Source: Roseibacillus sp. (GTDB lineage: Bacteria; Verrucomicrobiota; Verrucomicrobiia; Verrucomicrobiales; Akkermansiaceae). From it: 64,000 nt of DNA. Positions 19,574-51,518 of this stretch are shown here, piece after piece. Location: NCBI GenBank assembly GCA_965242925.1, contig CBDEUM010000034.1, positions 64,001-128,000 of the forward strand. Direction: 5' to 3'. The notes beneath the pieces are model-generated. The model did not search any database. It was not told the DNA's origin and worked only from the letters and a program-made list of their open reading frames with translations. Numbering within the stretch: position 1 is the stretch's first letter; every line of letters begins with the position of its first letter. The translations under genes were made by a program, and so were the position numbers.

Positions 19574-22500
19574 TCACTGTGAGGCTGCGGCACGCAGAAA
19601 GGCCATCACCTCACCGTTGTTGATCCCTGCCACCAGATCGGGGTGGCGATCACGGTTGAGATCGATCAGATGGAGTGATTTGGCGTCCCCTGGGATCACC
19701 AGGCCGCTCTCAGATGGCGAGATGGCCTCGAAGAGCCCACCCCCGGTGTTGCGAAGGATCAATCCGACACCACCATCCATGTGACCGGTCTCCGGTTGGG
19801 GCGAAAAGGAATTGCCCACTGCGCACAGATCGAGGTCGCCGTCGCCCTCCAGATCGCTGAAGACCATTGCAAAAATGGGTGCGGCCTGCGCGAGCCTGGG
19901 CAGGGGCCGGAAAGCGAAGCTCCCCGTGCCGTCATTCACGAAGATGCCCGACTGCAGCGTGTTGGCTTCATGCCGGGTCGCGGCTGCAAGCCGTTGTTCC
20001 GGATACAAATCAGCGAGCGCCTTGGTGGCAAAGCTGTGAAAACTGGGGTGTTGTTTGCCCAGGGTTGGCATGGCATTGCGGGAGCAGCTGAACCCGCGCA
20101 CCGGAACCAAGCTGGCGCCTTCGAATTTGGCTTCCACAATTCTTTTCCTGCCACTGCCATCCACGTCGCCGTAGTACATTACGGCAGGATGCCCGGGTGA
20201 GGCGTGGTATTTTGAATTGAGCCCCACGTTGCCCGCCGCGAAATCATAATCACCATCACCATCAACGTCCGCCACCGCAAGGCTGCTCCACCATCCGGCG
20301 AGTTGCTGGAGTCCCGACATGGGGGAAGTGTCAGCAAGGGAGCCTTTCCTGTTCAGGTAGAGTTTGACCGGACCCCAGTCATGAGCGACGAGAAGGTCGG
20401 GCCACTGATCGCCATTGAAGTCGGCCCACCGGGCGGCGGTCACGAGGCCGGTGGCGGCCAGTCCCTTCGGGGTCACTTCCACGAATTTGGGAGTGCCTTG
20501 TCTGCAGTCGTTGCGGAGCAACTGGCTGCGTGGTGTTTCGGGATACCTGCCCGGGATGCTGCGCCCACCCACGAAGAGATCGAGATCTCCGTCGCGATCG
20601 AAGTCGGCCGCGCATACTGCCCCCCCGCTGATGCTGACCGCGGGGAGAGTGCCGACGGGTGCCTTGGAAAAGGAACCTTTCCCATCGTTGAGATAGAGGC
20701 GGTCGCGCAGGAGGGCGGAGCCCGGTTCGCATTCAACACCACCACTCACGACGAATAAATCGAGGTCGCCATCGCGGTCGGCGTCGAAGAAGAGCGGCGC
20801 AATATCCTCGCAGGCCTCGTCGGCCTCGAAGGGATCAAGCGTGTTGACCTTGAAGTGGTCTCCCCGGGCGGAGGGAGCCTCCCGGCGCAAATGGACGCCT
20901 CCGCAGGTGCCTGCTGCACGACCGAGGTAGAAGTCCTGGCGCCCGTCCCCATTGACGTCTCCCCACGCCATTCCCGGTCCCAGTTGCGAAAGTTTGCTGG
21001 GAAGCAGAGGCTGTCCCCTGAAGTCATCGAAGTGGCGCTCCTCATGGGCAATGCCGCGAAAAATCGAGGAGGACACGAACATAGGACGGGGAGAAGTGGG
21101 GAGGGCGATGCCCGTCCGCGGCTCGGTGATGATGTGCAGATTTCCAGCGGCAAGCTTGCCGAGCTTCTGCCGTGTTCCCGAGGGCCAGGTGATGACGAGG
21201 GACTCAAGCTCTGTTGCCTCGCCGAGACCGAAGTGAAGCAGCGGTTCATTGGAGGACATGAAGCCGCGGGAGAGGGTCAGGGTCTTGGTCTGCAGTGCGG
21301 GCCGGGTTCCGAGGTGTGCCACCACGGTTGCGCCCACGCCCCAGCTGTTTCCTCCCCGTCCCTTCAACCGCAATGCGAGCCGATTGCCGCCGGCCAGATC
21401 GTTGCGATAGAGGGAAGGCCTGCCGCCGAAATTGTTCACCACCAGGTCCAGATCAAGGTCGCCGTCGAGGTCTCCGAGGGCGGCCCCATAGCTGACCGAA
21501 TCCCCGGAGAGTCCCCACGCCTTCCCTACGTTCTCGAAGCGCAAATCGCCGGTATTTCGAAACGCCCAGTTTGCGGAGACAAGAGGCTTCTGCTTCGTCC
21601 AGAACGCATTGGCGGCGGATTGACCCTTGTTGGCGATGAGATCCTCCTCCTGCTTGCGCAGGTCGCTGTTGAACCAGTCCCGGCTCATCCCGGTCGAAAT
21701 GTAGACATCGTCGCGTCCGTCACAGTCGAAGTCGGCAAACTTGACGGCCCAGGTCCAGTCCGTGGCCGCCAGGCCACAGAGGTGGGCCACTTCCATAAAG
21801 CGACCCGTGCCGGTGTTGAGGTAAACGGCATTGCGCATATACTGGCGGGGGGAGGGGAAGTTGAGGAACCACGAGTCGCTCTCGCGGCCGGTCATGTTGC
21901 CCATCGACATCTTCTCCTTGTAGTGAGTGCTGCCCGCCATGTCGGAGGCCATGTAGTCCAGGTGCCCGTCATTGTTGATGTCCGCCACGTCGGATCCCAT
22001 GGAAAACCACGGGGTGTGGGGCAGCACATCGGGAGCGACGTCGCTGAAGGTGCCGTCCTTATTGTTGCGGTAAAGACGGTCTGCCCCGTAGAAGTCATTG
22101 GCGACGTAGAGATCGATCCAGCCGTCGGAATCGAAATCCCACCAGGTTGCGGAAAGCCCGTATCCGGTGGTCCAGATCCCCGCGGCCTTGCTTACATCCG
22201 TGAACCTCGGGCGCCCGGCATCGTCATTGCCGTCATTGCGAAAAAGGTAGTCGAACTGGGCGCTGGCCACCTGCTTGTATTTGCCCTCCGGCATCTTTAC
22301 CAGGCCTGCGAATTGGGCATAGCGGTCGGGAAGGATCGGTTCGCCATCCGGACCGGTAGCAACATTGAATCGTTCCTGCAGGAGGCCGGGCGGGGGTTTG
22401 ATGCGATTGGTGACGAGATAGAGATCGAGATCGCCATCACGATCGTAGTCGGCAAAGGCCGCCATCAGGCTTGCTCCTCTGAAGGTCAGGCCACTGCTCT

Positions 22501-22942: not shown

Positions 22943-23006
22943 GACGAGGGCGCGAGCATGGTGATAGAGTTCCTTGCCCGCTTCGTCCATCACAACTCCC
23001 CCTGGA

Positions 23007-26000
23007 ATGCTTCACGCACTGGCAAGAACGGCTTTCGTCTTATCTGTATTCGCACTCATTCCCACTGCCGATGCAGAATTGGTGGCCTACTGGCCCCTCG
23101 ACACGGATGCGGAGGATGTCGTCGGGGGATACGATGGTTTTACAAGTGGAGGAGTGGTTTTCGGTGCGGAGGGGGCTGCGGCCCATTCGGGATCGGCAGC
23201 GGAGTTCAATGGAACGTCTTCGACCATCACGGTGCCCTATGCTGCCGCCCTGAACCCAGGCAGTTTCACGGTGGCGATGTGGGCCAATGCCGACAGCATG
23301 GCCGGCTTTGCATCCGCTATCACGAGCCGCGACGACGACAGTGATTCGGTGAATGGCTACATCATCTATAATGACAGCGCGGGTCGCTGGAATTTCTGGA
23401 CCGGAGGGGGTGGGCCCTCGGGATCCTGGCCCCAGCTTCCGGGACCCCCGGTGCAGATTGGATCCTGGACACATCTCGCGATCAGTTATGATGCGGGTTC
23501 GCAGACCATGCGCTTGCATGTCAACGGGGCGCTTGAGCGGTCGGCATCGGGCGCTGGTCTCTATAGTCCGAACGGTCCGCAAACCGAAGACCTCCACATT
23601 GGATCGGGCGCAGACAACGGAAGACAGTTCTACTTTGACGGACTCCTCGATGACGTGGGCCTGTGGGACGAGGCTCTCACCACGGCGCAGATTCAGGAGG
23701 TGATGAACAACGGGATTCCCGAGGGTGCACCGCTAGTGGTGTCCTTCGCCGCCGCCCCACCTTTCATCGATTCGGGGCAGAGCGTGACCTTGTCCTGGGA
23801 CACGGTGCGCGCCAGTTCGCTCTCCATCACGCCGGATGTCGGCATGGTTGCCAGGCCGACCGGAAATGTGATGGTGAGTCCTGCCCAAACTACCACCTAC
23901 ACGCTCACTGCCGTGGGCGAATCTTCCCCCGACGCGGTGGCTCGAATCACCGTAGGGGTGAATGTGGAAGCGCTGCCGCCAGTGATCAACGAGTTCGTCG
24001 CCGACAACGAAACAGGACTCACGGACAGAGAAGGGGACCGGGAGGATTGGATTGAGATCTACAATCCGAACCCCTTTGCGATCCAGTTGGGGGGATGGTC
24101 CCTGACCGATGATCCTGCCGAGCCCGGCAAATGGATCTTTCCTGCCCACGTTCTCGAGAGCGACGGCTATCTCGTGGTCTTTTCTTCGGAGAAGGATGGC
24201 CCGCTGGATGTTTCCTTCAGACTCGCTGGTGGGGGCGAGTACCTCGCCCTGGTTTCACCGGATGGCGACATCGTTCAGGAGTTTGCTCCCACCTATCCGT
24301 CTCAGTTCGATGACGTCGCCTTCGGGATTCCGACCGGGGGTGGCGTTGCGGTTTCACTCAGACCCACTCCGGGTGCCGCTAATGGGTCGGGGCTCTCCCA
24401 GATCCCTCCGGCCATCCTCAGCGTCAACCAGCATCCGCTCACTCCTGCCCAGAGCGAGGCACTGGTGGTCACCGCCGAGATTGAACCCCGTCTGGGGGCG
24501 ATCGCTACCGTCACGCTCACTTATCGCGTCAATTTTGATCGCGAGTTCTCCCTCCGCATGACCCAGGTGGGCGGAACCAGTTATCGTGCCACCATTCCCG
24601 CTAGAGCCTACTCCGCGGGAGACATGGTGCGCTGGTTCGTCATCGCCAGCACGACAGGCAGAGAGACCACGCGCTCGCCCGCCTTTCCCGATCCCACCGA
24701 ATCCGCGCAGTATCACGGAACAGTGGTGGCGGACCCCTCCATCACCTCCTCCCTTCCGGTGCTGCACTGGTTTGTTCAGAACACGGGTGCCAGTAATACG
24801 CGCGCCGGGACACGAGCCAGTCTCTATTTCGCGGGGCGCTTTTACGATAACATCTTCTGCCGCATACGAGGGCAGAGCACCGCCAACTGGCCCAAGCATA
24901 AATACAAGTTCGACTTCTATCGCGGAGGGCACTTTTTCTGGAAGGAGGGAGCCCCCAGGGTGGAGGAGTTCAACGTCAACTCGCACTACCGCGACGGCTA
25001 TGTGCGCGAGAATGCGATCTTCGCCTTCCTCAACGAAGCTGGTTCACCTGCGCCCGCCACGATGTTTATGTGGATCCGGCGCAACGGAGCAGACTTCGGA
25101 CTCTTCTCGTTCGTGGAGCAGATCGACGAGGAGTTTCTCGGGCGCCACGGCTTTGATGCCAGCGGTCCGATGTACAAGGCGATCAATGTCCCCGCCACTC
25201 TTTCACCCACCGTCAACACCAGTCTTTATCGCAAGGTTCTCAATCGTGATGCCCCCTACACCGATCTCCGTGATTTTACTGCCAGGATCAATATCTCCAA
25301 TCCGAATCGCTTCGCCTATGTCGCCGATGAGGTGAATCTTCCCAACTACATCAACGTGATGGCCGCAATGGCGGTTCCCTTTAATCACGATCAGCTCACC
25401 AAGAATTACTATCTCTACCGCGATCCGCATCGACAGGAGTGGTTCCGCTTCCCCTGGGACGGGGACGCAGGATTGCCATCCGGCACCACGAGTTCTCACG
25501 AGAACTGGTCCAGTCCGCTCTACGGCGACGCAGGGCACACGCAGGAACTGGTTAACGGTAATCCCAACCCGACCTGGCAGAATCACATGCACGCGGCAAT
25601 TTTGGATAATCCCATCACACGGGAAATGTACATGCGCCGCTTGCGCAACCTCGCCGATCAGTACCTTCGGGTGGACCGCAGCGGAAATGGATGGTTCGAA
25701 AACCTCATCAACGGGTGGAATGCTGAGATTTCAGCGGATGCTGCCCGTGACTTTCAGCTGTGGTCGCCCCAGGGAATCAGCTCCCTCAGCGGCACGATTT
25801 CGAATGTTCTCAACACCTCCCTGCCCAATCGTCGCAGGGCCCTTTTCCAGACCTACGGTCCACCGGGGACCGGACTCATCCCCCATCCGGAGCCCTCAAA
25901 TGCGAGGGTTGAGTTTGGAGCCATCGATTTCAATCCCGCCAGCGGTGATCAGGATCACGAGTATATCGAGATCATCAACACCAACGATTACGCAGTCGAT

Positions 26001-27038
26001 CTCAGTGGTTGGCGAATCGAGGGGGGCATCACCTTCACCTTCCCGCCGGGTGCCGTGATCCCGGCCGCCGGTGTCGATCCCGAGCGCGGCAAGGTGTTCC
26101 TGAGCCCCGACGTGATGTCCTTCCGGATGCGGCCCTCCGGTCCCACCGGCGGCGAATCGCGGATCATACTCGGCAACTACGCTGGCCATCTCTCGAACTT
26201 CGGGGAAACCCTTACTCTCCTCGACGACACCGCGCGCCAGGTTGCCCGGACTGTGCTGACTCCTCTCCCCAGCGATGTGCAGCTCTACCTCGCGGTATCG
26301 GAGGTCATGTACCACCCTGCGGTGGAGGGAGCCGAGTTCATCGAATTGATCAACATCAGCGACGTGGTCACGCTAGACCTCACCCATGTGAGGTTCAGCG
26401 CCGGGGTGGAGTTCGATTTCACCGGGAGTGCCGTTACTTCCCTTGCTCCCGGCGCCCGGGTGCTGGTCGTGCGTGACCTGGTCGACTTTTCCGCCGCTTA
26501 CGGTGCCGGGTTGCCGGTCGCCGGCGTCTTTGCCAATGGTAGTGCGCTCTCCAACGGTGGTGAGCGCATCAAGGTCGACGACGCTTCGGGAAGTAGTGCG
26601 ATCAACTTCAGCTATCTTGACGTGGAGCCATGGCCGTCTGCCGCCGATGGCGGGGGGTATAGCATCGTCTTGAAGCGGGTAGAGACCGGGACCGATCCGA
26701 GGGAAGCCAGGAATTGGAGGTCGAGTGCCCTTTCCGCCGGATCACCGGGTCTCAGCGATGTCATCCCCTTTGGAGGAGGCGATGCCCTGAGTTACGCCCT
26801 GGCCAGCGAACCAATTGTCCAACGCACTGCCGAACAGGTCACCTTCAGCTACCAGCACCGTCTCGGTGCTGAGGAGGCTGAGCTCACGGCGGAATGGTCG
26901 GGCGACCTGATGGTCTGGAATTCCGAGGCACTGGTCTTGCTCAGCCGGACGCCGGACGGGTTGGGATTGGAGAGGCTAACCTGGCAATTACCGGCTGGAT
27001 CCAGGGGATTCGTGCGCTTGCGGGTGGTGGTGCCCTAG
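23007..27038 (+). CDS. LamG / lamin-tail / CotH kinase-family large secreted protein (CotH giant 2, module A)
   Basis: Signal peptide; LamG (LVAYWPLD..WTHLAISYD..FDGLLDDVGLW); three LTDs; CotH (RIRGQST, KHKYKFDF, NHDQLTKNYYLY, FPWDGD). Confidence 0.9.
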   Translation: MLHALARTAFVLSVFALIPTADAELVAYWPLDTDAEDVVGGYDGFTSGGVVFGAEGAAAHSGSAAEFNGTSSTITVPYAAALNPGSFTVAMWANADSMAGFASAITSRDDDSDSVNGYIIYNDSAGRWNFWTGGGGPSGSWPQLPGPPVQIGSWTHLAISYDAGSQTMRLHVNGALERSASGAGLYSPNGPQTEDLHIGSGADNGRQFYFDGLLDDVGLWDEALTTAQIQEVMNNGIPEGAPLVVSFAAAPPFIDSGQSVTLSWDTVRASSLSITPDVGMVARPTGNVMVSPAQTTTYTLTAVGESSPDAVARITVGVNVEALPPVINEFVADNETGLTDREGDREDWIEIYNPNPFAIQLGGWSLTDDPAEPGKWIFPAHVLESDGYLVVFSSEKDGPLDVSFRLAGGGEYLALVSPDGDIVQEFAPTYPSQFDDVAFGIPTGGGVAVSLRPTPGAANGSGLSQIPPAILSVNQHPLTPAQSEALVVTAEIEPRLGAIATVTLTYRVNFDREFSLRMTQVGGTSYRATIPARAYSAGDMVRWFVIASTTGRETTRSPAFPDPTESAQYHGTVVADPSITSSLPVLHWFVQNTGASNTRAGTRASLYFAGRFYDNIFCRIRGQSTANWPKHKYKFDFYRGGHFFWKEGAPRVEEFNVNSHYRDGYVRENAIFAFLNEAGSPAPATMFMWIRRNGADFGLFSFVEQIDEEFLGRHGFDASGPMYKAINVPATLSPTVNTSLYRKVLNRDAPYTDLRDFTARINISNPNRFAYVADEVNLPNYINVMAAMAVPFNHDQLTKNYYLYRDPHRQEWFRFPWDGDAGLPSGTTSSHENWSSPLYGDAGHTQELVNGNPNPTWQNHMHAAILDNPITREMYMRRLRNLADQYLRVDRSGNGWFENLINGWNAEISADAARDFQLWSPQGISSLSGTISNVLNTSLPNRRRALFQTYGPPGTGLIPHPEPSNARVEFGAIDFNPASGDQDHEYIEIINTNDYAVDLSGWRIEGGITFTFPPGAVIPAAGVDPERGKVFLSPDVMSFRMRPSGPTGGESRIILGNYAGHLSNFGETLTLLDDTARQVARTVLTPLPSDVQLYLAVSEVMYHPAVEGAEFIELINISDVVTLDLTHVRFSAGVEFDFTGSAVTSLAPGARVLVVRDLVDFSAAYGAGLPVAGVFANGSALSNGGERIKVDDASGSSAINFSYLDVEPWPSAADGGGYSIVLKRVETGTDPREARNWRSSALSAGSPGLSDVIPFGGGDALSYALASEPIVQRTAEQVTFSYQHRLGAEEAELTAEWSGDLMVWNSEALVLLSRTPDGLGLERLTWQLPAGSRGFVRLRVVVP

Positions 27039-27130: not shown

Positions 27131-27925
27131 ATGAAACGACTAGAGCTTGCGTGCATTCTTTTCGCGACCACTCTCGCCGCCTCGCTTCCTGCTGGTGCCG
27201 GGGTGATTGCCTGGTGGCCTCTGGATAATGATGCCAATGATGCCTCCGGAAACGGTCACAACGGATCGGTGGTAGGTGGCACGGTCAACTTCGGCCAAGC
27301 GGGTGCCAATGCTGCTACCGGGTTCTCCGCAAGTTTTCCTGACCAAGGCCACATCGATGTGCCTTACGCTGCTGTGCTCAATCCGGGCACCCAGGCCCCC
27401 GGTGGCTCGGGCAGCTTTACGATCGCGCTCTGGGCCAACTCGAGCAGCAATGGAGGGTTCAACTCACCCTTCACTGCCCGCGAAGACAACGGGGCGTCGG
27501 TAAATGGTCCGATTATTTACAACAATAACGGGGGTAACTGGAGTTACTGGGCTGGCAACAACGGACCTTCCGGGCAATGGAATGCGCTCAATGGTCCCGC
27601 CGTGCCTCTCAACACCTGGCAACACGTGGCGGTTACTTATGATTCGTCTACGCAGACTCGTAACATGTTTGTCGACGGTGTTGAGGTGCTCACTGCCAAC
27701 CTCGGCGTCTCCCCCAACGCCTTGCGTAACATCCATATCGGATCCGGTCAGGACGATGGACGTAACTTCTACTGGAATGGTCAGATCGACGACGTGATCA
27801 TGTATGACGAAGCCTTGAGCGCCGCTCAGATTCAGAATGTCATGACCAACAGCGTCCCTGAGCCCAGCGGCACGGGCCTCATGATCCTGGCGGCCTTCGG
27901 GTTCGTCCTGCGCCGTCGCCGATAG
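27131..27925 (+). CDS. PEP-CTERM protein with LamG-like jelly-roll domain (module A)
   Basis: Signal peptide from ATG 27131; LamG; C-terminal VPEPSGTGLMILAAFGFVLRRRR. Confidence 0.92.
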   Translation: MKRLELACILFATTLAASLPAGAGVIAWWPLDNDANDASGNGHNGSVVGGTVNFGQAGANAATGFSASFPDQGHIDVPYAAVLNPGTQAPGGSGSFTIALWANSSSNGGFNSPFTAREDNGASVNGPIIYNNNGGNWSYWAGNNGPSGQWNALNGPAVPLNTWQHVAVTYDSSTQTRNMFVDGVEVLTANLGVSPNALRNIHIGSGQDDGRNFYWNGQIDDVIMYDEALSAAQIQNVMTNSVPEPSGTGLMILAAFGFVLRRRR

Positions 27926-28547
27926 AGTCCAGGCGTCCACTGAATATTTAGAAGACCGGCAAACCCACTCCTTGGGTTTGCCGGCTTTTTTTAACCCCCC
28001 CCCTGGACAATTTTTCCTCTCATCCAAAACCGCTCCCATAAACCATGAACCTGCGTTCTTTCTTCCTCTTCACCTTTTGTGCAATCGCCATCCAAGTGGC
28101 CTCCGTGCACGCTGATCTCCTGGCGCACTGGCCACTCGACAACGACGCCGCTGATGCCACTGGAAACGGGCACGATGGGGTCGTGACTGGAGGGACTGTT
28201 AATTTCGGACAACCCGGAGCCAATGCTGCCACCGGCAATGCCGCGGCCTTCCCTGACAATGGTCACATTGACGTCCTTTTCGATACGGCGCTCAATCCGG
28301 GCACCCAGGCCCCCGACGGCTCGGGCAGCTTCACGATCGCGCTCTGGGCCAACTCGAGCAGCAATGGGGGATTCAACTCACCCTTCACTTCCCGCGAAGA
28401 CAACGGGGTGTCGGTAAATGGTCCGATTATTTATAACAATAACGGCGGTAACTGGAGTTACTGGGCTGGCAACAACGGAGCCCCCGGGCAATGGAATGCG
28501 CTCAATGGTCCCGCCGTGCCCCTCAATACCTGGCAGCACGTGGCGGT
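27376..28547 (+). repeat. Near-identical LamG-coding DNA shared by the PEP-CTERM gene (core 27376-27633) and the large gene (28290-28547)
   Basis: Collinear at offset 914, with long identical runs. Confidence 0.9.
27956..27992 (+). terminator. Rho-independent terminator
   Basis: 12-bp perfect stem CCGGCAAACCCA / TGGGTTTGCCGG, 5-nt loop, followed by T7. Confidence 0.85.
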
Positions 28548-35738: not shown

Positions 35739-35809
35739 TGGGGATCTGCGAAGCTAGGCAGGGAAACTGGTGATGCAAGCCAGCTCTCTGATCGGCCCTC
35801 ACCGACGCA

Positions 35810-39589: not shown

Positions 39590-39625
39590 CAATCGTTTTT
39601 ACCAACCCACGAAACAACTCATCAA

Positions 39626-40255
39626 ATGAAACTCAACCTGGCCTTCTTCAGCTGCGCAGCGATTCTGCTCAGCGCATCATCCCAACTGAGTGCTGCCATC
39701 GCGCTCACCGTCCCCGCTGGAGCGACGTTCAATCAACACCACAATGGATTGCTGGGAATGGATTTCGATGTCACCGGGCCGGACGGGATCATCGTCTCAC
39801 GTCTGGGTGCCTTCGACTCGGGGCAGGATGGAATTCTCGGGACGATCAATGTGGGAATCGTGGACCGCACCACAGGGCTCGTGGTGGGAGAAACCCTTTC
39901 GTTCTCCGGGGACGCCGGCGACGTTGTGGACGGGAGCCGCTTTCTTAACCTCGCGACTCCTATCACGCTGGCCAATGGTTTTCAGGGCTCCATCACGGCG
40001 CAGGGCTACGGTCAGGAAGGCAACGGCAACGGGCAGGTCTCAACGATCGATGACGGCGGCGGTTTGATCAATTTTGTGGGAGGAGCTCGCTGGGGCGGAG
40101 ATGACCCCATCAGCCTGGCGCCGAATGCCGATGGCGGTCCGGCGAATCGCTACTTTGCCGGTACTTTTGATTATCGGGCAGTTCCGGAGCCGGGCTCCCT
40201 GGCCTTACTTCTTGGCGCGGTAGGGCTCTTGGGCCTTCGTCGTCGCCGGGCATAA
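39626..40255 (+). CDS. PEP-CTERM protein with DUF4082-like domain (module C)
   Basis: Signal peptide MKLNL..SSQLSA; C-terminal VPEPGSLALLLGAVGLLGLRRRRA. Confidence 0.92.
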   Translation: MKLNLAFFSCAAILLSASSQLSAAIALTVPAGATFNQHHNGLLGMDFDVTGPDGIIVSRLGAFDSGQDGILGTINVGIVDRTTGLVVGETLSFSGDAGDVVDGSRFLNLATPITLANGFQGSITAQGYGQEGNGNGQVSTIDDGGGLINFVGGARWGGDDPISLAPNADGGPANRYFAGTFDYRAVPEPGSLALLLGAVGLLGLRRRRA

Positions 40256-40391
40256 GGTCCGCTCCCCATCCGGGAGAGATCCCGCGCCCCATCCGAGGGA
40301 CGGTACGATGTGCCCTTGCGGAGGCGGTAGCCGGGATACTCGTTTGCGAGAGTCCGAAAACTCCTCCTGATCGGACCACTTACTTGGCGTA

Positions 40392-43034: not shown

Positions 43035-43149
43035 GAACGGATCAGGTTTGGTTTACCACCCCTGATATTCTTCGATTCAACGCTACGTTATCGTTCGTAT
43101 TTGCTCGTTTCAACTGGACCCATTTTTCGAAGATAGACAGGATTGGTCA

Positions 43150-46100
43150 ATGAAACTCAATCTGCCGTTGATCAGCTGCGCAGCGATTTTGCTCAGCGCA
43201 TCATCCCAACTGAGTGCTACCATCGCACTCACCGTCCCTGCTGGAGCGACGTTCAATCAACACCACAATGGATTGCTTGGAATGGATTTCGATGTCAACG
43301 GGCCGGACGGGATTATCGTCACACGTCTGGGCGCCTTCGACTCGGGACAGGATGGCATTCTCGGGACGATCATTGTAGGAATCGTGGACCGCGCCACCGG
43401 AAACGTGGTGGGAGAAACCCTTTCGTTCTCCGGGGACGCCGGCGACGTTGTGGACGGGAGCCGCTTTCTCGCCCTCACCACGCCCCTGGTATTACCCAAT
43501 GGTTTTCAGGGTTCCATCACCGCGCAGGGCTACGGTCAGGAAGGCAACGGCAACGGGCAGGTCTCAACGATCGATGACGGCGACGGCTTGATCACGTTCG
43601 TGGGAGGAGCCCGCTGGGGCGGAGATGACCCCCTGACCCTGGCGACGAATGCTGATGGCGGCCCGGCCAATCGCTACTTTGCCGGCACCTTTGAATTCCT
43701 GAGCGAGGATCTGAGCGAGGACACCGATGGGGATGGGTTGCCCAATGCCTGGGAAGAGACCTTCGGCTTGAATCCCAGTGATCCTGACGATGCCGATGAT
43801 GACGGCGACGGCGATGGTCTGAACAACACGGAGGAGTTTGAGAACAACACCGATCCCACCGAGCGGGACACAGATGGTGATGACCTGACCGATGGTGAAG
43901 AGGTCAACACTGCCATGACCGATCCAACCAAGAGGGATAGCGACGGCGATGGCCTGTGGGACAGCGTTGAAACCAATACTCGCTCCTTTACGAGTTGGAC
44001 CGGTGATTTGGAAGATCCAGACGTTCCCCAAACAGGGGACACCGGATCCGATCCCAATGATACCAATACCGACGATGACGGGTTTTCAGACGGCGCGGAA
44101 GTCGCCGCGGGCTTTGACCCGAATGATCCGAACAGCGGTCCGCCGTCATCCCAACTGAGTGCTGCCATCGCACTCACCGTCCCCGCTGGAGCGACGTTCA
44201 ATCAACACCACAATGGATTGCTGGGAATGGATTTCGATGTCACCGGGCCGGACGGGATCATCGTCACACGTCTGGGCGCCTTCGACTCGGGGCAGGATGG
44301 AATTCTCGGGACGATCAATGTAGGAATCGTGGACCGCGCCACCGGAAACGTGGTGGGAGAAACCCTTTCGTTCTCCGGGGACGCCGGCGACGTTGTGGAC
44401 GGCAGCCGCTTTCTCGCCCTCACCACGCCCCTCATATTACCCAATGGTTTTCAGGGTTCCATCACGGCGCAGGGCTACGGTCAGGAAGGCAACGGCAACG
44501 GGCAGGTCTCAACGATCGATGACGGCAATGGCTTGATCACGTTCGTGGGAGGAGCTCGCTGGGGCGGAGATGACCCCCTGACCCTGGCGCCGAATGCTGA
44601 TGGCGGCCCGGCGAATCGCTATTTTGCCGGCACCTTTGAATTCCTGAGCGAGGACACCGATGGGGATGGGTTGCCTGATGCCTGGGAAGAGACCTTCGGC
44701 TTGAATCCCAGTGATCCTGACGATGCCGATGATGACGGCGACGGCGATGGTCTGAACAACACGGAGGAGTTTGAGAACAACACCGATCCCACCGAGCGGG
44801 ACACGGATGGTGATGACCTGACCGATGGTGAAGAGGTCAACACTGCCATGACCGATCCAACCAGGAGGGATAGCGACGGCGATGGCCTGTGGGACAGCGT
44901 TGAAACCAATACTCGCTCCTTCACGAGTTGGACCGGTGATTTGGAAGATCCAGATGTTCCCCAAACAGGGGATACCGGATCCGATCCCAATGATACCAAT
45001 ACCGACGATGACGGGTTTTCAGACGGCGAGGAGGTCGCGGCAGGCTTTGACCCGAATGATCCGGACAGCGGTCCGTCGCTCTCCTTCCAAGGCATGCTGG
45101 CGATCGACTACCTGGAGCCAGGAGTCGGAACGCAGGAATTTGCGGAAGGACTGGGACACGACTTCCTCGTGATCGGCGAGGCGATCGAAGTCACCGCGCT
45201 TGGCGTATTCGACAGTGGGGCGGATGGTCTCAACCGGGAGCTCACCTCCGAGCTCTGGGTGCGGGACGACAACAACTTGGGGACGTCGTTGCTGGCATCC
45301 CTCTCCTTCGTCCCGGGGGCACCCGGGCTGCTGCACCATTCGAACCGGATCAAATCTCTCCCCATCCCACTCGTCCTCGAGCCGGGCGCCTACACAATTG
45401 TCGGTCGGGGCTATGGGGCGGGTGAGCCGAACGGGAATACCGGTGGTCCTGGATCAGACCTCAAGCCCATCAATGATGGAGGCGGACGGATCGAGTTCGT
45501 GGGCGGTGCCCGTTGGGGGGGCGGTGGGATTGGTGGCGCCGTTGGATTCCCACAAAATGTTGATGGCGGACCGCCGGTGCGCTATGCGGCGGGGACCTTT
45601 GCCTTCCGGACTGAGCCGCCGCCTAAATTGTTCTGGCGAATTTCCTCGAGCGGGGACGATCTCATCTTCGAGTGGGAGAGCAGATTAGGGAAGGTCTACG
45701 ACATCTTAAGCAACGACGATCTCTCCGATCACCCGGCAGCAGGCTGGCCCCTCTTCCGCGGAGACATTGCCGGGACCCCTCCCTTGAATGTCGAGACCTC
45801 CCTTCGCCCCCCCGACGAAAAACGCTACTTCGTGCTGGTCGAGAGGGACGGTCCGCCTCTTTTCGAAGATGATTTTGAGACTGACAAAGGGTGGACCGCG
45901 ATCGTGAACGATGCCAACGGCAATACCAACTGGGAGCGCGGCACCCCCGGCGGCAGCACTGGACCGCTCACCGGCGCCGATGGCTCCGCCAATGCCTGGT
46001 CCACCAACCAGGGAGACTACGGACCGGATTCCGACATCGCCCTGCGCTCGCCGCTTATTGATTTGACCGGTATTCCGACCGCCGAATTGTCCCTCGACGC

Positions 46101-46353
46101 CTTCAGGGACGCCGATGGCTTCGCCGACACCGCCTCGGTGCGCTTTCTGGACGCAACCGGCCTCACCCAGTTGGGGTTCGAGCACCCCATCGACATGACT
46201 GTCTTCGACGGTGACTGGACCAACCTGGTCATCCCGGTGGCACCAGAAGCCCTCGGGGAGAGCATCATCATCGAAATCAATTTTATCAGCGACAACAGCG
46301 AGGACACCTTCAGCGGGCTCTCCATTGACAACGTCAGCGTGAGTGCCGAGTAG
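43150..46353 (+). CDS. Large secreted protein: (DUF4082-like + TSP3-like repeats) x2, third DUF4082-like domain, shared C-terminal region (module C)
   Basis: Signal peptide almost identical to that of 39626; internal tandem duplication; C-terminus highly similar to that of 36302. Confidence 0.9.
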   Translation: MKLNLPLISCAAILLSASSQLSATIALTVPAGATFNQHHNGLLGMDFDVNGPDGIIVTRLGAFDSGQDGILGTIIVGIVDRATGNVVGETLSFSGDAGDVVDGSRFLALTTPLVLPNGFQGSITAQGYGQEGNGNGQVSTIDDGDGLITFVGGARWGGDDPLTLATNADGGPANRYFAGTFEFLSEDLSEDTDGDGLPNAWEETFGLNPSDPDDADDDGDGDGLNNTEEFENNTDPTERDTDGDDLTDGEEVNTAMTDPTKRDSDGDGLWDSVETNTRSFTSWTGDLEDPDVPQTGDTGSDPNDTNTDDDGFSDGAEVAAGFDPNDPNSGPPSSQLSAAIALTVPAGATFNQHHNGLLGMDFDVTGPDGIIVTRLGAFDSGQDGILGTINVGIVDRATGNVVGETLSFSGDAGDVVDGSRFLALTTPLILPNGFQGSITAQGYGQEGNGNGQVSTIDDGNGLITFVGGARWGGDDPLTLAPNADGGPANRYFAGTFEFLSEDTDGDGLPDAWEETFGLNPSDPDDADDDGDGDGLNNTEEFENNTDPTERDTDGDDLTDGEEVNTAMTDPTRRDSDGDGLWDSVETNTRSFTSWTGDLEDPDVPQTGDTGSDPNDTNTDDDGFSDGEEVAAGFDPNDPDSGPSLSFQGMLAIDYLEPGVGTQEFAEGLGHDFLVIGEAIEVTALGVFDSGADGLNRELTSELWVRDDNNLGTSLLASLSFVPGAPGLLHHSNRIKSLPIPLVLEPGAYTIVGRGYGAGEPNGNTGGPGSDLKPINDGGGRIEFVGGARWGGGGIGGAVGFPQNVDGGPPVRYAAGTFAFRTEPPPKLFWRISSSGDDLIFEWESRLGKVYDILSNDDLSDHPAAGWPLFRGDIAGTPPLNVETSLRPPDEKRYFVLVERDGPPLFEDDFETDKGWTAIVNDANGNTNWERGTPGGSTGPLTGADGSANAWSTNQGDYGPDSDIALRSPLIDLTGIPTAELSLDAFRDADGFADTASVRFLDATGLTQLGFEHPIDMTVFDGDWTNLVIPVAPEALGESIIIEINFISDNSEDTFSGLSIDNVSVSAE
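43201..45078 (+). repeat. Intragenic tandem duplication: 43201-44145 (945 bp) and 44146-45078 (933 bp)
   Basis: Both copies begin TCATCCCAACTGAGTGCT. They differ by scattered substitutions and a 12-bp LSED duplication in copy 1. Confidence 0.92.
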
Positions 46354-46478
46354 ATCTCGACTGACCAAATAATCAACAAACCTTGCCAGGCGGTGAAGTC
46401 CACAGGCATTCACAAGTTTGCCGTGCGGTGTCTGTTGGAATTTTCGGGAAAGCAGTCTATGCTTCCCCGGTCCCCCTG

Positions 46479-49400
46479 ATGCACCCTCCCTTCCGTCTGC
46501 TCTTCTGTCGAGTCCCCCAATTGGTGGCGACCCGAATGGTGGCTTGCCTGCTATTCGGAACAGCACCGCTTTTGGCCAATCCCTTCATCTCCGAGTTTAT
46601 GGCGGACAATGGCTCCACCCTGGCCGATGAGGACGGCGAGTTTCCGGACTGGATCGAGATTACCAACAGCGGAACGGAGCCGGTCGATCTCGCCGGCTGG
46701 CACCTCACCGACGACGAGACCAAGCCCACCAAGTGGACGTTCCCCGGTCCCGCCTCACTGGCAGGAGGGCAGTCGCTGGTCGTCTTCGCGTCGGGCAAGA
46801 ACCGCCACCGACCTGGCAGACCCCTCCACACCAACTTCGCTCTCAATCAAAGCGGAGAGTTCCTGGCCCTGGTGGCCCCGGATGGCGCCACGCTGGCAAG
46901 CCGCTTCTCGCCCTACCCCCCCCAGGAACTCGACCTCTCCTACGGAGTGGGACTGGGTCCCGCGGCTGTGACCACTCTCCTGATTGAGGACGACTCCCAG
47001 GCCCTCCTGCTGGTTCCCTCCGGCCCGGTTGACGACTCCTGGCGGGGCGGAGAACCCTTCAATGAAAACTCCTGGACCCCCGTGCAACTGGGCGTGGGCT
47101 TCAACACCGGGGGTGGCGCGGTGATCGGTGGGGGAGGGGGGGAAACCACCATCGCCTACGGCGTGGCGGATGGGACCTCCGGCACGCAGGTATTCGGGGG
47201 AGGACTGGGGATGGACTTCGCCGTCCTCGAGTCAATCTCGGTGAAAAAGCTCGGTGTCTTCGATGACGATTCGGACGGACTGAACCGCACCATTACGGCC
47301 GAGCTTTGGTCGCGGGACGGCAACGGTAGCGGCATCGTGCTGGCCAGCGAAACCTTCACTTCCGGCAACCCCGGAACCCTCGAAGCGGGTCATCGCTTCA
47401 AGTCCCTTTCCTCCCCGCTCACGCTGGAACCGGGCCCCTACACCATCGTGGCCCACGGCTACGGAGGTGATGAACGCAATGGCAACTCGGGCGGCAACGG
47501 GGACTTTGCCACCTCGAACGACGGAGGGGGCCTGATCCAGTTCGTGGGCTCCAGCCGCTTCGGCTCTGCGGGCGGGGCCTGGCCGGATAGCGAGGACGGG
47601 GGCGGACCGGCCCGCTACGGGGCAGGCACCTTCACCTTTGCGGCCGTCGGCGACAGCCTGATTCGGACCGATCTGGAATCCGGGATGCATGGCCAGAACG
47701 CCTCCGCTCTGTTGCGGATCCCCTTTTCCTACGCCGGACCGGAACTTGCTACCACTCTCACTCTTGAGATCGCCTACGACGATGGATTCACCGCCTGGCT
47801 CAACGGCCAGCTACTCACTTCGCGCAATGCCTCCACCGATCCCGCTTGGAACAATGTCGCCAGCGCTGCAGGGAATGCGGTGGAGACCATCGTGCTGCCC
47901 TCGACCGCCTTGACGATTGGCGACAACGTTCTCGCCGTCCAGGGAATGAACCTGCATGGAGACGATCCGGACTTCATGGTTGCTCCCCAACTCTCCGCCG
48001 CTTTCTCCCGCTTCGAACGTCTCTACTTCTCCAATCCAACCCCCGGCCAACCCAACGGCCAGGGCGAGCAAGGCACCGGGATCGTGATCAACGAAATCCA
48101 CTACGACCCCTCTTCAGACACCGCACCGGCCGAGTTCCTCGAACTCTACAACGCGGGAGCGCGCACGGTGAATCTCACCGGATGGCGCCTGACCGGGGCG
48201 GTGGACTACACCTTCCCGGCCAACACCGGACTGGCCCCTGACCGCTACCTCGTGGTGGCTCTGAATGCGCCCTTCTTCGAGGCGGAGTTCAGCGGGGTTC
48301 CGGTTCACGCGCCCTTCCTGGGCCGGCTCAGCAACAACGGGGAAACCGTGGAGCTGCGCAACAACCTCGATGAAGCCATCGACAGGGTGAATTACGCCGT
48401 GGGCGCACCCTGGCCCGTGGCGGGCAACGATCCCTATCCCTCGATCCAACTGCTCCATCCCGGGCAGGACAATGATTTGGCGGGCAGTTGGCGAGCCGCT
48501 CCACCTACGCCGGGAGCACTCAACGCCGTCTTCTCAGTCGATACTCCACCACAGGTGCGCCAGGTCAATCACCTGCCTCTCGCCCCCGCCAGCGGGGAAG
48601 AAGTGGTGGTCAGCTGTAAGGTCACTGATCCCGATGGGGTGGCCTCGGTCACGCTGGAATACCAGACCGTGCTGCCGGGGCGCTACCTTCGCCTCAGCGA
48701 CGCTACCTTTGAGACAAGCTGGGATAGGCTGCCGATGTCACTCCTTCCCACTGGCCAGAGCACCTATCAGGCGACCCTGCCCGCCGACCTCCAGCGCCAC
48801 CGTCAACTTATTCGCTACCGCATCGTGGCTGAAGATTCCTTCGGGGCAACCGTGAGGCTTCCGCTGCCCAGCGACCCCTCCGTCAACTTTGCCTACTTCG
48901 TCTACAATGGCGTCCCGGGTTGGCGGGGAGCCATCATTCCGGGCGAAACTCCCGTTCTCGATTTCAGTGCGGAGGCAATGAACCACCTTCCGACCTACCA
49001 TCTCATCGCGAATGCTGAGGACGTGAGCGCGTCCCAGTACAACCGCTCCTTCAACGACAAGGTCTACCGCTTCGAAGGGGCCCTGGTCTACGACGGTGTA
49101 GTTTATGACCACATGCGCTACCGTGTTCGCGGTCATGGCTCGACCTACAACACCGGAAAGAACAAGTGGAAGCTGCGTTTCAATCGCGGACACCTCTTCC
49201 AGGGACGCGACGACTACGGGCGCCCCTACCGGGAAAAGGTGCGAACCCTGAACTGGAGCGCTCTCTCCAGCCCCTGGAACCCCGCCAATCGCGGAGCAGC
49301 TGGATTGGATGAAGCGCTGGCCTTCCGGCTCTGGCGCATGGCCGGCATCCCTGCTGCCAACACCAACTATTTCCATCTTCGTATCATCGACGGCGCGCGG

Positions 49401-51518
49401 GAGACGAACCGGGGAAATCAGTTCGAAGGCGACAACTGGGGTCTCTATCTCGCCCTTGAGCAAACGGACCGCCGTTTTCTCGACGAGCGCGGGTTACCCG
49501 ATGGGAATACCTTCAATATGCACTTTGGCTCGAGCAACATCGTCAATCAGGCTTACCGCCAGCCGTCCAACCGCAGCGACCTCTTCACATTCAACGGAGC
49601 CAGCTCCCGGGGATACAATCGAGCTAATCCGGTGCAACCGGTGGCCTGGTGGAATCGCACGGTGGACCTGGAAAGCTACTTTTCCTATCGGGCGATTCTG
49701 GAAGCGGTCAATCACTCCGACCTGCGCGACAAGGAAAACTCCATCCTTTACCACGACCCCACCAAACGGCGGTGGACCATGATCCCGTGGGACGTTGACC
49801 TGCTCTACGAAGAGTTCGATCGCTGGGGGCCAAACGCGGTGCAAAGCCCCGCCACCCTCGAGCAATTCCGCAAGGCGCTCACTCATCCCGAGATCAACAT
49901 CCGCTTTCAAAACCGCGCCCGGGAGTTGCAGGACCTTCTCCTCAATAGCGACCAGGGATGGACTCTCGTCGACGAATTGGCCAGCGTTCTGGGCAGCTCC
50001 GACGGCAATCTCGGCATGGCGGAATTGGACGCTGCCCGTTGGAATGGAGATCCGCAGACAAGACGGGTCGAGGGATCGAGTCCCAATCCGAAAGCCTACT
50101 TCTTCATGAACCCCTACACCTCGACGCGCTTCCCCGCCAAGAGGCGCACCCTCATTTCCGGAGACTTCCCGGGCATGGTGGACTGGGTGAAAAAGTTCAT
50201 TGTGCCACGGGGCTTTGGCGGGGGGCGACTCCGCGACATGACGCGGGATTCCCGCATTCCGGAGACACCAGTCATCTCCTACACCGGATCGAACGGCTTC
50301 CCGGCGGTTGGGTTGCGACTCAGGAGCAACGCCTTTGCACCTGGAAACGGGGGCGCGTCATTCGCGGCCATGGAATGGCGCATCGGTGAGGTCCGTCATC
50401 CGGACGTGCCTGGTTTCGAGGAAGGAGAACCGTGGCGCTATGAGATCGAGGCCACCTGGAGCTCGGGCGAATTAAATGTCTTTCAAGACGAGATCGCGGT
50501 GCCCGCTGTCGCGGTGCAAGTCGGTCGCCTCTATCGAGGCCGGGTGAGACACCGGGGTGACGACGGGCGCTGGAGTCATTGGTCCGCCCCCCTGGAATTC
50601 ACGACCGCGAATCCCGATCTCCAACCCTACCTGACGGGTCTCGTAATCAGCGAGGTGATGTATAATCCCGCCGATGATAATCAGGAACTCGAGTTCATTG
50701 AAGTGCGAAACGTGGGGCCGTCCACCCTTGATCTCTCAGACGTGCGCTTCAGCAACGGGATTGAGTTCTCCTTTGCGGCCTCGAGCATCACAAGTCTGGC
50801 GGCTGGCAGCAGGGCCCTGGTAGTGCGCAACGAGGCCGTCTTCGAAGCGCATTACGGTGCCAATCTGCCCGTGGCAGGCGAATATCGCCTCTCCGCCTCC
50901 AACAATCTGAGTAATGCCGGGGAACGCGTGACGCTCTCCCTGGGCGCAGACAGCATTATCCGGGATTTCAGCTATCGCGACAACCGACCCTGGCCAAGCG
51001 GTGCCGACGGCACGGGCTACTCGCTGGTCCTGAGGGCACCCGAATCCCTCCCCGATCACAGCCTCGCCGTCAACTGGCGCAGCAGCGCCCTGCCCGACGG
51101 TAATCCTGGCAGCTCCGATGCCCTTCCTGAGTTCACCGGCGATCCCCACCGGGACGACGATCAAGATGGCCTGATGGCTCTCCTGGAACACGCCCTGGGT
51201 GGCGATCCCGCCACCGCCGAGTCCGAATTGGTTCCTGCCGCTTCCGTCATGAACCTCGAAGTGGAGGGCACCTTTGACAATTACCTCACCATCAGTGCCC
51301 GGCGGATGTTGGGGGCCGACGACGTGACCCTCATCGCGCAGATCAGCGGGAACCTCGTCGACTGGTCGAGCGCTCCGGAGCGCGTGGTCCTGGTGAGCGA
51401 GGTCCCGAATGCAGATGGCACTTCGATCATGACCTGGCGCAGCGCCCGTCCTATGGCGGAGGCTCCCCAGGAGTTTCTGCGAATTGAAGCTTCCATTCAG
51501 CGGATCCCACTCAGGTAG
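46479..51518 (+). CDS. Lamin-tail / DUF4082-like / CotH kinase-family giant (CotH giant 4, module C)
   Basis: LTD (ISEFMADN..DWIEI), DUF4082-like insert, further LTDs, CotH (RVRGHGS, KNKWKLRF, NHSDL..N, IPWDVD). Start 46479 or 46536. Confidence 0.9.
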   Translation: MHPPFRLLFCRVPQLVATRMVACLLFGTAPLLANPFISEFMADNGSTLADEDGEFPDWIEITNSGTEPVDLAGWHLTDDETKPTKWTFPGPASLAGGQSLVVFASGKNRHRPGRPLHTNFALNQSGEFLALVAPDGATLASRFSPYPPQELDLSYGVGLGPAAVTTLLIEDDSQALLLVPSGPVDDSWRGGEPFNENSWTPVQLGVGFNTGGGAVIGGGGGETTIAYGVADGTSGTQVFGGGLGMDFAVLESISVKKLGVFDDDSDGLNRTITAELWSRDGNGSGIVLASETFTSGNPGTLEAGHRFKSLSSPLTLEPGPYTIVAHGYGGDERNGNSGGNGDFATSNDGGGLIQFVGSSRFGSAGGAWPDSEDGGGPARYGAGTFTFAAVGDSLIRTDLESGMHGQNASALLRIPFSYAGPELATTLTLEIAYDDGFTAWLNGQLLTSRNASTDPAWNNVASAAGNAVETIVLPSTALTIGDNVLAVQGMNLHGDDPDFMVAPQLSAAFSRFERLYFSNPTPGQPNGQGEQGTGIVINEIHYDPSSDTAPAEFLELYNAGARTVNLTGWRLTGAVDYTFPANTGLAPDRYLVVALNAPFFEAEFSGVPVHAPFLGRLSNNGETVELRNNLDEAIDRVNYAVGAPWPVAGNDPYPSIQLLHPGQDNDLAGSWRAAPPTPGALNAVFSVDTPPQVRQVNHLPLAPASGEEVVVSCKVTDPDGVASVTLEYQTVLPGRYLRLSDATFETSWDRLPMSLLPTGQSTYQATLPADLQRHRQLIRYRIVAEDSFGATVRLPLPSDPSVNFAYFVYNGVPGWRGAIIPGETPVLDFSAEAMNHLPTYHLIANAEDVSASQYNRSFNDKVYRFEGALVYDGVVYDHMRYRVRGHGSTYNTGKNKWKLRFNRGHLFQGRDDYGRPYREKVRTLNWSALSSPWNPANRGAAGLDEALAFRLWRMAGIPAANTNYFHLRIIDGARETNRGNQFEGDNWGLYLALEQTDRRFLDERGLPDGNTFNMHFGSSNIVNQAYRQPSNRSDLFTFNGASSRGYNRANPVQPVAWWNRTVDLESYFSYRAILEAVNHSDLRDKENSILYHDPTKRRWTMIPWDVDLLYEEFDRWGPNAVQSPATLEQFRKALTHPEINIRFQNRARELQDLLLNSDQGWTLVDELASVLGSSDGNLGMAELDAARWNGDPQTRRVEGSSPNPKAYFFMNPYTSTRFPAKRRTLISGDFPGMVDWVKKFIVPRGFGGGRLRDMTRDSRIPETPVISYTGSNGFPAVGLRLRSNAFAPGNGGASFAAMEWRIGEVRHPDVPGFEEGEPWRYEIEATWSSGELNVFQDEIAVPAVAVQVGRLYRGRVRHRGDDGRWSHWSAPLEFTTANPDLQPYLTGLVISEVMYNPADDNQELEFIEVRNVGPSTLDLSDVRFSNGIEFSFAASSITSLAAGSRALVVRNEAVFEAHYGANLPVAGEYRLSASNNLSNAGERVTLSLGADSIIRDFSYRDNRPWPSGADGTGYSLVLRAPESLPDHSLAVNWRSSALPDGNPGSSDALPEFTGDPHRDDDQDGLMALLEHALGGDPATAESELVPAASVMNLEVEGTFDNYLTISARRMLGADDVTLIAQISGNLVDWSSAPERVVLVSEVPNADGTSIMTWRSARPMAEAPQEFLRIEASIQRIPLR

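Follow-up and report, generated by a model that had tools for sequence, protein, structure and literature searches.

Introduction

Secreted CotH-family proteins and PEP-CTERM cargo are abundant in environmental bacteria. To our knowledge, both have received hardly any study except in Bacillus spores and in a few floc formers. In Bacillus subtilis CotH, D228 and D251 are the residues at which mutation inactivates the protein (PMC7821199). The cellulosome of Clostridium thermocellum also contains CotH proteins, among them CseP (Cthe_0044) and Cthe_0239, the latter built from two LTD domains, an Fn3 domain and a CotH domain (PMC6083626). Here we analysed a window of 64,000 nucleotides from Roseibacillus sp. 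(assembly GCA_965242925.1, contig CBDEUM010000034.1, positions 64,001 to 128,000); the window is this whole stretch of DNA, and coordinates below are positions within it. Between 19574 and 51518 it carries three modules, A, B and C, made from four protein families: a giant CotH protein with LTD domains, a small PEP-CTERM protein, a large secreted partner protein and an FG-GAP/UnbV protein. We refer to these as CotH, PEP, Large and FG-GAP with the module as suffix, to the domain that recurs among them as the payload, and to successive payloads of a large protein as d1, d2 and d3. These modules are three versions of a lineage-specific, putative surface cassette that is repeated many times over the genome.

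The cassette recurs across the genome

The genome is a 4.58 Mb, approximately 90% complete metagenome-assembled genome (MAG) of a marine member of the Akkermansiaceae near Roseibacillus. Pfam and NCBIfam profiles gave 44 CotH, 25 choice-of-anchor J, 22 PEP-CTERM and 29 UnbV matches in this genome, and our own hidden Markov models (HMMs) identified about 45 CotH, 44 large-partner, 27 PEP-CTERM and 26 UnbV open reading frames (ORFs). The four families form 28 mixed clusters, five of them with all four, and 14 CotH, 13 large-partner, six UnbV and five PEP ORFs stand alone. We compared their spacing with 500-1000 random placements, and with 500 shuffles in a second version of the test. A large partner lay within 5 kb of 16 of the 27 PEP ORFs (random mean 3.3) and a CotH gene within 5 kb of 14 (random mean 3.8). 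At the same distance 13 of 26 UnbV ORFs had a PEP neighbour (1.5-2.0 at random), and 16 of 44 large partners had a CotH neighbour (random mean 6.2). None of the 500 shuffles reached any of these four counts, and co-location was above random for every family pair except UnbV and large partner in the first test.

The 27 PEP ORFs carry 24 payload types. When the distance was widened to 10 kb, 20 of the 27 had a large partner, and the payload was shared in 13 of these 20 pairs, at 51-93% identity. A CotH gene lay within 10 kb of 16 PEP ORFs and shared the payload in only four cases, three in the window and one on contig C9. Searching with tblastn for 22 PEP cores revealed a paralogous payload for 11, the best copy being within 15 kb in nine of the 11. 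A preliminary description, made from the window alone, had proposed that the four families have a constant membership. The non-random co-location agrees with this, but the robust core is the pair of PEP and large partner, CotH sharing its payload so rarely.

The cassette on contig C9 of the same genome has the order CotH, FG-GAP/UnbV, PEP, large partner, CotH, with one payload in four of the proteins. In contrast to the window, this payload is of the F5/8 type C (discoidin) kind rather than LamG or a PHR-like fold, and the PEP copy resembles both CotH copies (59-61% identity) more than it does the large protein (48-56%).

Payloads are shared within modules

All-against-all BLAST of the window proteins showed that the payloads of PEP and Large are 78-91% identical within a module and 40-53% identical between modules, with the CotH copy at 41-52%. 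PEP_A is 78.6% identical to Large_A d1 (residues 23-242) and 71.6% to d2, PEP_B is 78.4% identical to Large_B d1, and PEP_C is 88.5% and 91.6% identical to Large_C d1 and d2; PEP_B and PEP_C are 53% identical to each other. The payload of CotH_A has 47% identity to PEP_A, 46.7% to Large_A d2 and 40.8% to d1. That of CotH_C has approximately 50% identity to PEP_B and 51-52% to the last payload of Large_B and Large_C (51% for Large_B d2). The LamG of module A has no closer counterpart than 28% identity among the remaining large partners of the genome. One payload per module had been proposed, and PEP, Large and CotH do carry it; the FG-GAP proteins do not, BLAST having found no similarity between them and any PEP, Large or CotH protein of the window.

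The identification of LamG in module A was borne out, with Laminin_G_3 (PF13385) scoring 95.4, 86.4 and 149.9 bits in the three proteins against a cut-off of 27.6. The payload of modules B and C had been called DUF4082-like. The shared domain is real, but the PF13313 match is below threshold: the only one (E 0.0095, 16.3 bits against a cut-off of 28.4) falls on the N-terminal piece of CotH_B, and the Pfam scan found none in PEP_B, PEP_C, Large_B or Large_C. One distant homologue of this payload (29% identity) carries PF13313. The PEP_C payload was modelled as a beta-sandwich with a predicted local distance difference test score (pLDDT) of 90.7. In a wide structure search its best fold matches were PHR domains (Z 9.4-10.9, 142 residues aligned for the top match) and the lectin-like domain of Cwp84 (Z 9.1), and a Foldseek search of the model against the PDB gave no match at E ≤ 0.001. 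Predicting a complex of the PEP_C payload with Large_C d2, both given as alignments, returned a score of 0.00 in two runs, a result that comes without controls and weighs neither way.

PEP_C corresponds to residues 1-183 of Large_C, including the signal peptide, with 90% nucleotide identity from the exact start codon. A 393-base contig in the DNA sequencing runs X1 and X2 joins 43240-43495, in Large_C d1, to 39972-40108, in the 3' part of PEP_C, the two being connected at homologous positions. This contig represents either an allele produced by recombination or conversion, or a join made in assembly within the 90% repeat.

CotH domains retain putative catalytic columns

The CotH profile (PF08757) scored 116.7 bits in CotH_A, 57.0 in CotH_B and 80.0 in CotH_C, against a gathering cut-off of 23.8. 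CotH_A also matches the CotH structure 5JD9 (E 2.4e-10) and retains the D..N..WD.D motif. Reading the columns out of an alignment, we found D..N and WD.D/E retained in all four CotH domains of the window and in 32 of 43 across the genome. These columns would correspond to D228 and D251 of the B. subtilis protein when a four-residue offset, which is our own, is applied between the numbering of 5JD9 and the B. subtilis residues. The CotH domains keep the columns that we align in this way to the catalytic aspartate pair, and kinase activity is predicted. The CotH giants also carry CHB_HEX_C_1, Fn3_assoc or PA14 domains.

The large partners share a C-terminal domain

All three large proteins end in the same region, as the preliminary description had stated: in BLAST and in the alignment the last ~250 residues are 52-76% identical, Large_A matching Large_B at 52.5% over 257 residues. 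The choice-of-anchor J profile (NF038128, cut-off 30) scored 37.2 bits in Large_B and 33.7 in Large_C, and gave no hit in Large_A at E ≤ 0.01. One paralog of the region matches the InhA-like MAM domain PF20773. A model of the last 250 residues of Large_C (pLDDT 87.2) consists of a small beta domain followed by a jelly-roll. The jelly-roll resembles MAM domains, with Z 15.2 to 8yt7 (151 residues aligned, root-mean-square deviation 2.7) and Z 14.1 to both meprin alpha and RPTP mu. Over MAM domains and carbohydrate-binding modules (CBMs) together the scores run from Z 12 to 15, and since CBMs score nearly as high as MAM, the match identifies the class of fold only. The choice-of-anchor name stands for a domain that is followed by one of several C-terminal anchors. 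In each of the 16 aligned paralogs the protein stops with this domain, and no sorting signal or other C-terminal anchor follows.

Occurrence in other genomes

Using a pattern derived from a seven-row alignment of the large-protein end, we scanned one genome per species and found 55 loci. They belong to Roseibacillus, Akkermansiaceae or Verrucomicrobiales MAGs, together with one other MAG and two contigs (L040 and L063) labelled Candidatus Poribacteria NP41. The nucleotide identity of these two to contigs C13 and C29 of the present genome is 92.9% and 90.6%, respectively; the phylum label is doubtful for them because of this identity to a verrucomicrobial genome, and probably reflects binning. 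Another cassette member is present at 29 of the 55 loci (CotH at 16, PEP at 14, UnbV at 13, all four at three), many loci being fragmentary. There are 14 PEP ORFs at these loci. Thirteen match a large protein, and for ten the best match is at the same locus; for one the same-locus copy ranks second by score although its identity is higher, two match elsewhere, and the fourteenth ORF is unmatched.

All 12 genomes of the genus that were scanned carry the end domain, and it was found in none of the eight that belong to other families of the order. The genus also shows an expansion of CotH, 11 of the 12 genomes having 22-50 candidates each. When 300 genomes were drawn from the phylum, the end-domain profile matched at E ≤ 1e-25 in only two, G024 and G028. 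Their nine end-domain loci hold no CotH or UnbV detectable with HMMs built from our own genome, and a single PEP pair. This pair (L089, in G024, from another family of the phylum) consists of a large protein followed by a PEP-CTERM protein, 71% identical over 227 residues. At 552-5661 of L089 the MAM-ended protein, the PEP-CTERM protein and a 762-residue protein with the same domain (35% identity) stand in a row, and a GH43 gene lies 5 kb further on. Co-occurrence in genomes of the Planctomycetes-Verrucomicrobia-Chlamydiae (PVC) group, which had been put forward as a check, is kept in other species of the genus, without wider conservation in the 300-genome draw or in the genome G015 discussed below.

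Organisation of the modules

Genes were called from the ORF list with Pfam and NCBIfam scans, which covered 14 window proteins at E ≤ 0.01. All twelve gene slots of modules A, B and C are occupied where they had been placed, and in the scan of the genome with our own HMMs contig C34 carries a run of exactly twelve cassette members. Export signals, either a Sec signal peptide or a lipobox, can be read from the sequence of every cassette protein in the window.

Module A begins with the 1139-residue propeller protein FG-GAP_A on the minus strand (19574-22993), with FG-GAP_3 in nine stretches (E 3.3e-91, 300.3 bits), UnbV_ASPIC (E 2.1e-18, 66.4 bits) and a lipoprotein-like N-terminus. The other three genes are on the plus strand. 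CotH_A (23007-27038; CotH E 2e-33, LTD 1.2e-31, Laminin_G_3 4.9e-27) has a signal peptide, a LamG payload at 23208-23696, three LTDs, the CotH domain at 24861-25775 and a C-terminal LTD region. PEP_A (27131-27925; Laminin_G_3 E 2.8e-24, TIGR02595 21.4 bits) has a signal peptide, a LamG payload at 27197-27856 and a PEP-CTERM tail at 27851-27922. Large_A (28045-30867; Laminin_G_3 E 7.6e-44 in two stretches, choice_anch_D 51.1 bits) runs from a signal peptide through LamG d1 (28111-28770), a choice-of-anchor D immunoglobulin-like (Ig) domain and LamG d2 (29428-30078) to the C-terminal Ig and MAM-like end (30091-30858).

In module B the CotH gene is again a giant, on the minus strand at 30995-35738, one gene that appears here as two ORFs (30995-34963 and 34806-35738). 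Its payload (34637-35126) spans the break at 34845, the CotH domain (E 2.9e-15) is at 32675-33379, and LTD and CHB_HEX_C_1 were also found by Pfam. FG-GAP_B is a remnant on the minus strand, a C-terminal UnbV piece at 35857-36000 (UnbV_ASPIC E 6.5e-8, profile positions 14-61) in an open frame of 161 residues, and an FG-GAP-like repeat further upstream reaches approximately 36200. Large_B (36302-38581, plus strand; choice_anch_J) has a signal peptide, payload d1 (36383-36883), TSP3 Ca-binding repeats, d2 (37307-37846) and the Ig and MAM-like end (37850-38575). PEP_B (38948-39589, plus strand; PEP-CTERM E 3.3e-5, TIGR02595 26.4 bits) has a signal peptide, its payload at 39017-39517 and a PEP-CTERM tail.

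Module C is entirely on the plus strand. PEP_C (39626-40255; PEP-CTERM E 6.3e-6, TIGR02595 27.0 bits) has the same layout, with the payload at 39695-40180. FG-GAP_C (40392-43034) is a lipoprotein gene with FG-GAP_3 (E 2.8e-39, 134.0 bits) and UnbV_ASPIC (E 1.1e-14, 54.5 bits); FG-GAP and UnbV_ASPIC matches are thus above cut-off in modules A and C, module B holding a remnant only. Large_C (43150-46353; TSP3_bac E 5.3e-17, choice_anch_J) alternates d1 (43219-43704), d2 (44164-44649) and d3 (45100-45612) with TSP3 repeats after a signal peptide, and closes with the Ig and MAM-like end at 45643-46344. CotH_C (46479-51518; LTD E 2.4e-49, CotH 3e-22) has a signal peptide, an LTD, the payload at 47148-47645, further LTDs, the CotH domain at 49122-49994 and a C-terminal LTD region.

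The tails of the three PEP proteins consist of a VPEP motif, a hydrophobic helix and an arginine cluster, and all score above the TIGR02595 cut-off of 16 bits; 22 PEP-CTERM tails were aligned. The genome holds one exosortase (PF09721, 135.1 bits; contig C14, 350112-350888). Neither dockerin nor cohesin was matched by Pfam at E ≤ 0.01 among the 14 window proteins, and the scan found no glycoside hydrolase, lyase or transporter inside modules A to C.

Altered gene copies

CotH_C aligns unbroken across both frames of CotH_B. The split at 34845 is caused by one extra C in a run of C, and this base is absent from contigs of the DNA runs X1, X2 and X6, which come from three studies; stretches of X6 without cover carry no information. 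At a second run of C, at 36116, the window has one C more than the X1 and X2 contigs. Both differences look like homopolymer-length errors of the assembly, and CotH_B is therefore probably intact in the population. The runs that hold the locus are seawater and marine metagenomes.

FG-GAP_C contains an in-frame TGA at 42360-42362, with FG-GAP_3 before the stop and UnbV_ASPIC after it in the same frame, and is colinear with FG-GAP_A on both sides. An X1 contig that spans 40268-43269 differs in one letter. The single X1 difference displayed for this range is at 41029 rather than at the stop, and X1 may be the source sample. Metatranscriptome contigs from one run cover 37513-38366 and 39575-40237. 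We rejected them as a sign of transcription, as the library may hold DNA.

History and selection

The locus had been described as three tandem copies of a four-gene module. The membership is present, but modules B and C derive from one module with two CotH genes, into which a trio was inserted. In Roseibacillus ANT-131 (locus L014) the order is CotH_B (minus strand), an FG-GAP piece (minus strand), Large_B and PEP_B, followed directly by CotH_C, at 87-89% nucleotide identity, and in UBA7890 (L013) Large_C and CotH_C are arranged as in the window. From these orders B and C can be read as one module flanked by two CotH genes, as in the C9 cassette. On this comparison of gene orders the trio of PEP, FG-GAP and Large would be an insertion in the lineage of the present genome and UBA7890. 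Gene order differs between species. In ANT-131, where L014 and L048 are on one contig, a relative of module A stands after the B/C module, here before it, and the PEP_C/FG-GAP_C/Large_C trio is missing.

The ratio of nonsynonymous to synonymous divergence (dN/dS) is 0.09-0.28 in every ortholog and paralog comparison. PEP_B is 93% identical to its ANT-131 ortholog, with a dN/dS of 0.13, and in the payload tree it groups with that ortholog (support 86/99) and not with Large_B. Given this grouping and the low dN/dS, both forms are maintained as separate genes rather than as decaying duplicates. The synonymous divergence of the paralogs is 0.84 in module A, 0.54 in B and 0.22-0.29 in C, and that of orthologs is 0.26-0.64. 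The duplicates are not ancient, and the within-genome values, a little below those across genomes, leave room for occasional gene conversion. The payloads of B and C form two groups in the tree (support 100/100), one of PEP with the N-terminal Large copies and one of the CotH copies with the last Large copy, in a tree that carries a long-branch warning. Payloads had been expected to group by module. PEP-Large identity is higher within modules, and the B/C tree splits by type of copy.

Neighbouring genes

A fourth CotH giant of 1671 residues lies on the minus strand at 4745-9760, with LTD, PA14, CHB_HEX_C_1 and CotH domains, and is 36% identical to CotH_B over 1266 residues. Two giant PQQ/BamB-like propeller proteins on the plus strand, at 10116-13907 and 16449-19334, are paralogs of each other (32% identity over 722 residues, 36% over the last 280), and the first ends in a malectin domain. 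We considered these three genes as a fourth cassette and rejected it, since they have no payload in common and the CotH gene has neither a PEP nor a large partner. On the other side of the modules the genes at 51522-53003 (minus), 56420-60257 (minus), 60333-61433 (plus) and 61947-63998 (plus) encode sulfatases and planctomycete-type PSD/PSCyt proteins (DUF1592/1588/1585). This flank has two sulfatases and two PSD/PSCyt sets, one of them with DUF1552, which is typical gene content of marine PVC bacteria.

Discussion

The favoured interpretation, to which we give about an even chance, is that the payload acts as a shared address in a surface adhesion or matrix layer. We favour it because CotH keeps its aligned catalytic columns and because the genome has an exosortase. 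The small PEP protein, with its signal peptide, single beta-sandwich binding domain and PEP-CTERM tail, would be processed by the exosortase and held on the envelope. The large partner would be secreted with one to three of the same payloads, joined by TSP3 or Ig domains and closed by the Ig domain and MAM-like jelly-roll. In the window a more divergent copy is part of the secreted LTD-CotH giant, a kinase-like enzyme, and an FG-GAP/UnbV lipoprotein without the payload would complete the set. The anchored form, a multivalent secreted cross-linker and the enzyme would in this way be directed to one target, for which a glycan from algal particles or from the matrix of the cell itself is the most likely candidate. 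A single type of adhesive surface layer would result from each cassette, and CotH would phosphorylate one of its components. The folds, which are of binding types, support such an address: LamG, discoidin (C9) and PHR/lectin-like sandwiches for the payloads, and a MAM/CBM-like end. What we infer here is the ligand, the surface location, the contact between the proteins, and the kinase activity and its substrate.

Several observations weigh against the shared address. A secreted kinase has no obvious supply of ATP outside the cytoplasm. As CotH shares the payload in so few of its pairings with PEP, addressing of the enzyme is the exception. Of the 20 PEP proteins that neighbour a large partner, seven have nothing in common with it, and for 11 of 22 PEP proteins no paralogous payload was found in the genome. 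The FG-GAP member appears dispensable, given that one copy is a remnant and another has an in-frame stop. The paralogs are also fairly young, and part of their similarity is therefore explained by local duplication alone. Among the genomes scanned the cassette is confined to one genus and one pair elsewhere. In G015, a 6.5 Mb genome from another family of the order with 30 CotH and 23 PEP-CTERM matches, only two PEP genes are within 10 kb of CotH, where a rough estimate of chance gives approximately 2.7. This genome has no UnbV and no choice-of-anchor J match, and CotH can therefore expand without the cassette.

A bolder form of the idea, which we hold to be rather improbable, is a combinatorial, address-coded extracellular assembly with phosphorylation, in which about two dozen private beta-sandwich domains would serve as matching tags, each uniting an exosortase-anchored receptor, a Ca-binding scaffold and, in some cassettes, a secreted CotH kinase. 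Tags of both types, that of the anchor and that of the kinase, would be present on the scaffold. If true, bacteria would have here an equivalent, made from paralogous domains, of cohesin-dockerin logic and of the way in which secreted kinases control the extracellular matrix of animals.

Other explanations account for parts of these data. It is possible, though unlikely in our judgement, that the payload self-associates like with like, the large protein bridging PEP through its N-terminal copies and CotH through its last copy in the manner of cohesin and dockerin. The fully supported split of the B/C payload tree follows exactly these lines, CotH_A is closer to Large_A d2 than to d1, nearly every pair has a private payload (24 types among 27 PEP ORFs), and the end domain has the fold of MAM domains, which mediate homophilic contacts in some animal receptors. 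Yet the tree is the one that carries the long-branch warning, CotH_C is equally close to PEP_B and to the last Large copies, and on C9 the PEP payload is closer to CotH than to the large protein, from which it follows that a layout of two subtypes is not general. A second explanation involves no functional coupling: four abundant and rapidly expanding exported families would pile up in islands, and local partial duplication or recombination would produce the shared domains. The sheer number of family members in the genome, the low synonymous divergence of the paralogs (0.22-0.84), the match of PEP_C to the start of Large_C, the contig that joins Large_C d1 to PEP_C in two runs (by recombination or in assembly) and the variable gene order all fit this. 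We nevertheless give it a small chance, as purifying selection acts on both copies in two species, where orthologs cluster according to gene type, and as pairs of this kind occur with 13 or more unrelated payloads and, within the phylum, in a further family. Unrelated families also co-locate, UnbV and PEP in 13 of 26 cases against 1.5-2.0 expected, and since these two share no sequence, duplication cannot explain it.

The cassettes could also be foraging gear that captures algal polysaccharides, similar to the surface glycan-binding proteins of polysaccharide utilisation loci, with CotH in a binding or structural role and not as a kinase. The lectin- and CBM-like folds of payloads and end domain would suit this, as would the CHB_HEX_C_1, Fn3_assoc or PA14 domains of the CotH giants, the sulfatases and the malectin-bearing propeller in the same window, the GH43 gene next to the pair in G024 and the seawater and marine origin of the runs. 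We consider it improbable, however. The three modules contain no glycoside hydrolase, lyase or transporter, the retention of the columns aligned to the CotH active site argues for catalysis, and PEP-CTERM cargo is linked to matrix and floc formation, not to uptake.

In this genome most of the PEP-CTERM cargo neighbours a large partner (20 of 27), 13 with the same domain, and CotH giants are often adjacent. The genome offers a handle on the function of exosortase cargo, on the targets of secreted CotH proteins and on how particle-associated marine Verrucomicrobiota build their surfaces, and its 24 payload types are a panel of uncharacterised binding domains.

Comparison with known systems

How does the cassette compare with systems already described? 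It resembles the B. subtilis CotH-CotB/CotG system in having a CotH domain with the aligned aspartate pair and a proposed role in a proteinaceous outer layer. In contrast, the CotH proteins here are exported giants of 1300-1700 residues with LTD and lectin-like domains in a non-sporulating diderm, Ser-rich basic substrates like CotB and CotG are absent here, and Bacillus CotH works in the mother cell. The cellulosome of C. thermocellum likewise has secreted LTD-CotH proteins that a dedicated targeting module draws into an extracellular multiprotein assembly (PMC6083626). There the targeting relies on dockerin-cohesin pairs, whereas here the candidate address is a variable lectin-like domain common to neighbouring proteins.

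The choice-of-anchor J family (NF038128) and PF20773 are the nearest relatives of the large-protein end, as Large_B and Large_C pass the former, a paralog matches the latter and the model has a MAM fold; the difference is that the domain here is terminal and unanchored, and is preceded by a conserved beta domain of approximately 80 residues. With the PEP-CTERM/exosortase system the cassette has in common small proteins with PEP-CTERM tails and signal peptides, and an exosortase in the genome. Here, however, the cargo is paired with a non-anchored paralog carrying the same domain, beside CotH, an arrangement not found in the literature searched. The preliminary description had recognised no named system of this composition, and none appears in the portions of the literature on CotH, PEP-CTERM and choice-of-anchor proteins that were searched. 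Closest to it come exosortase cargo, the CotH system of the Bacillus coat and, in C. thermocellum, the LTD-CotH proteins with dockerins.

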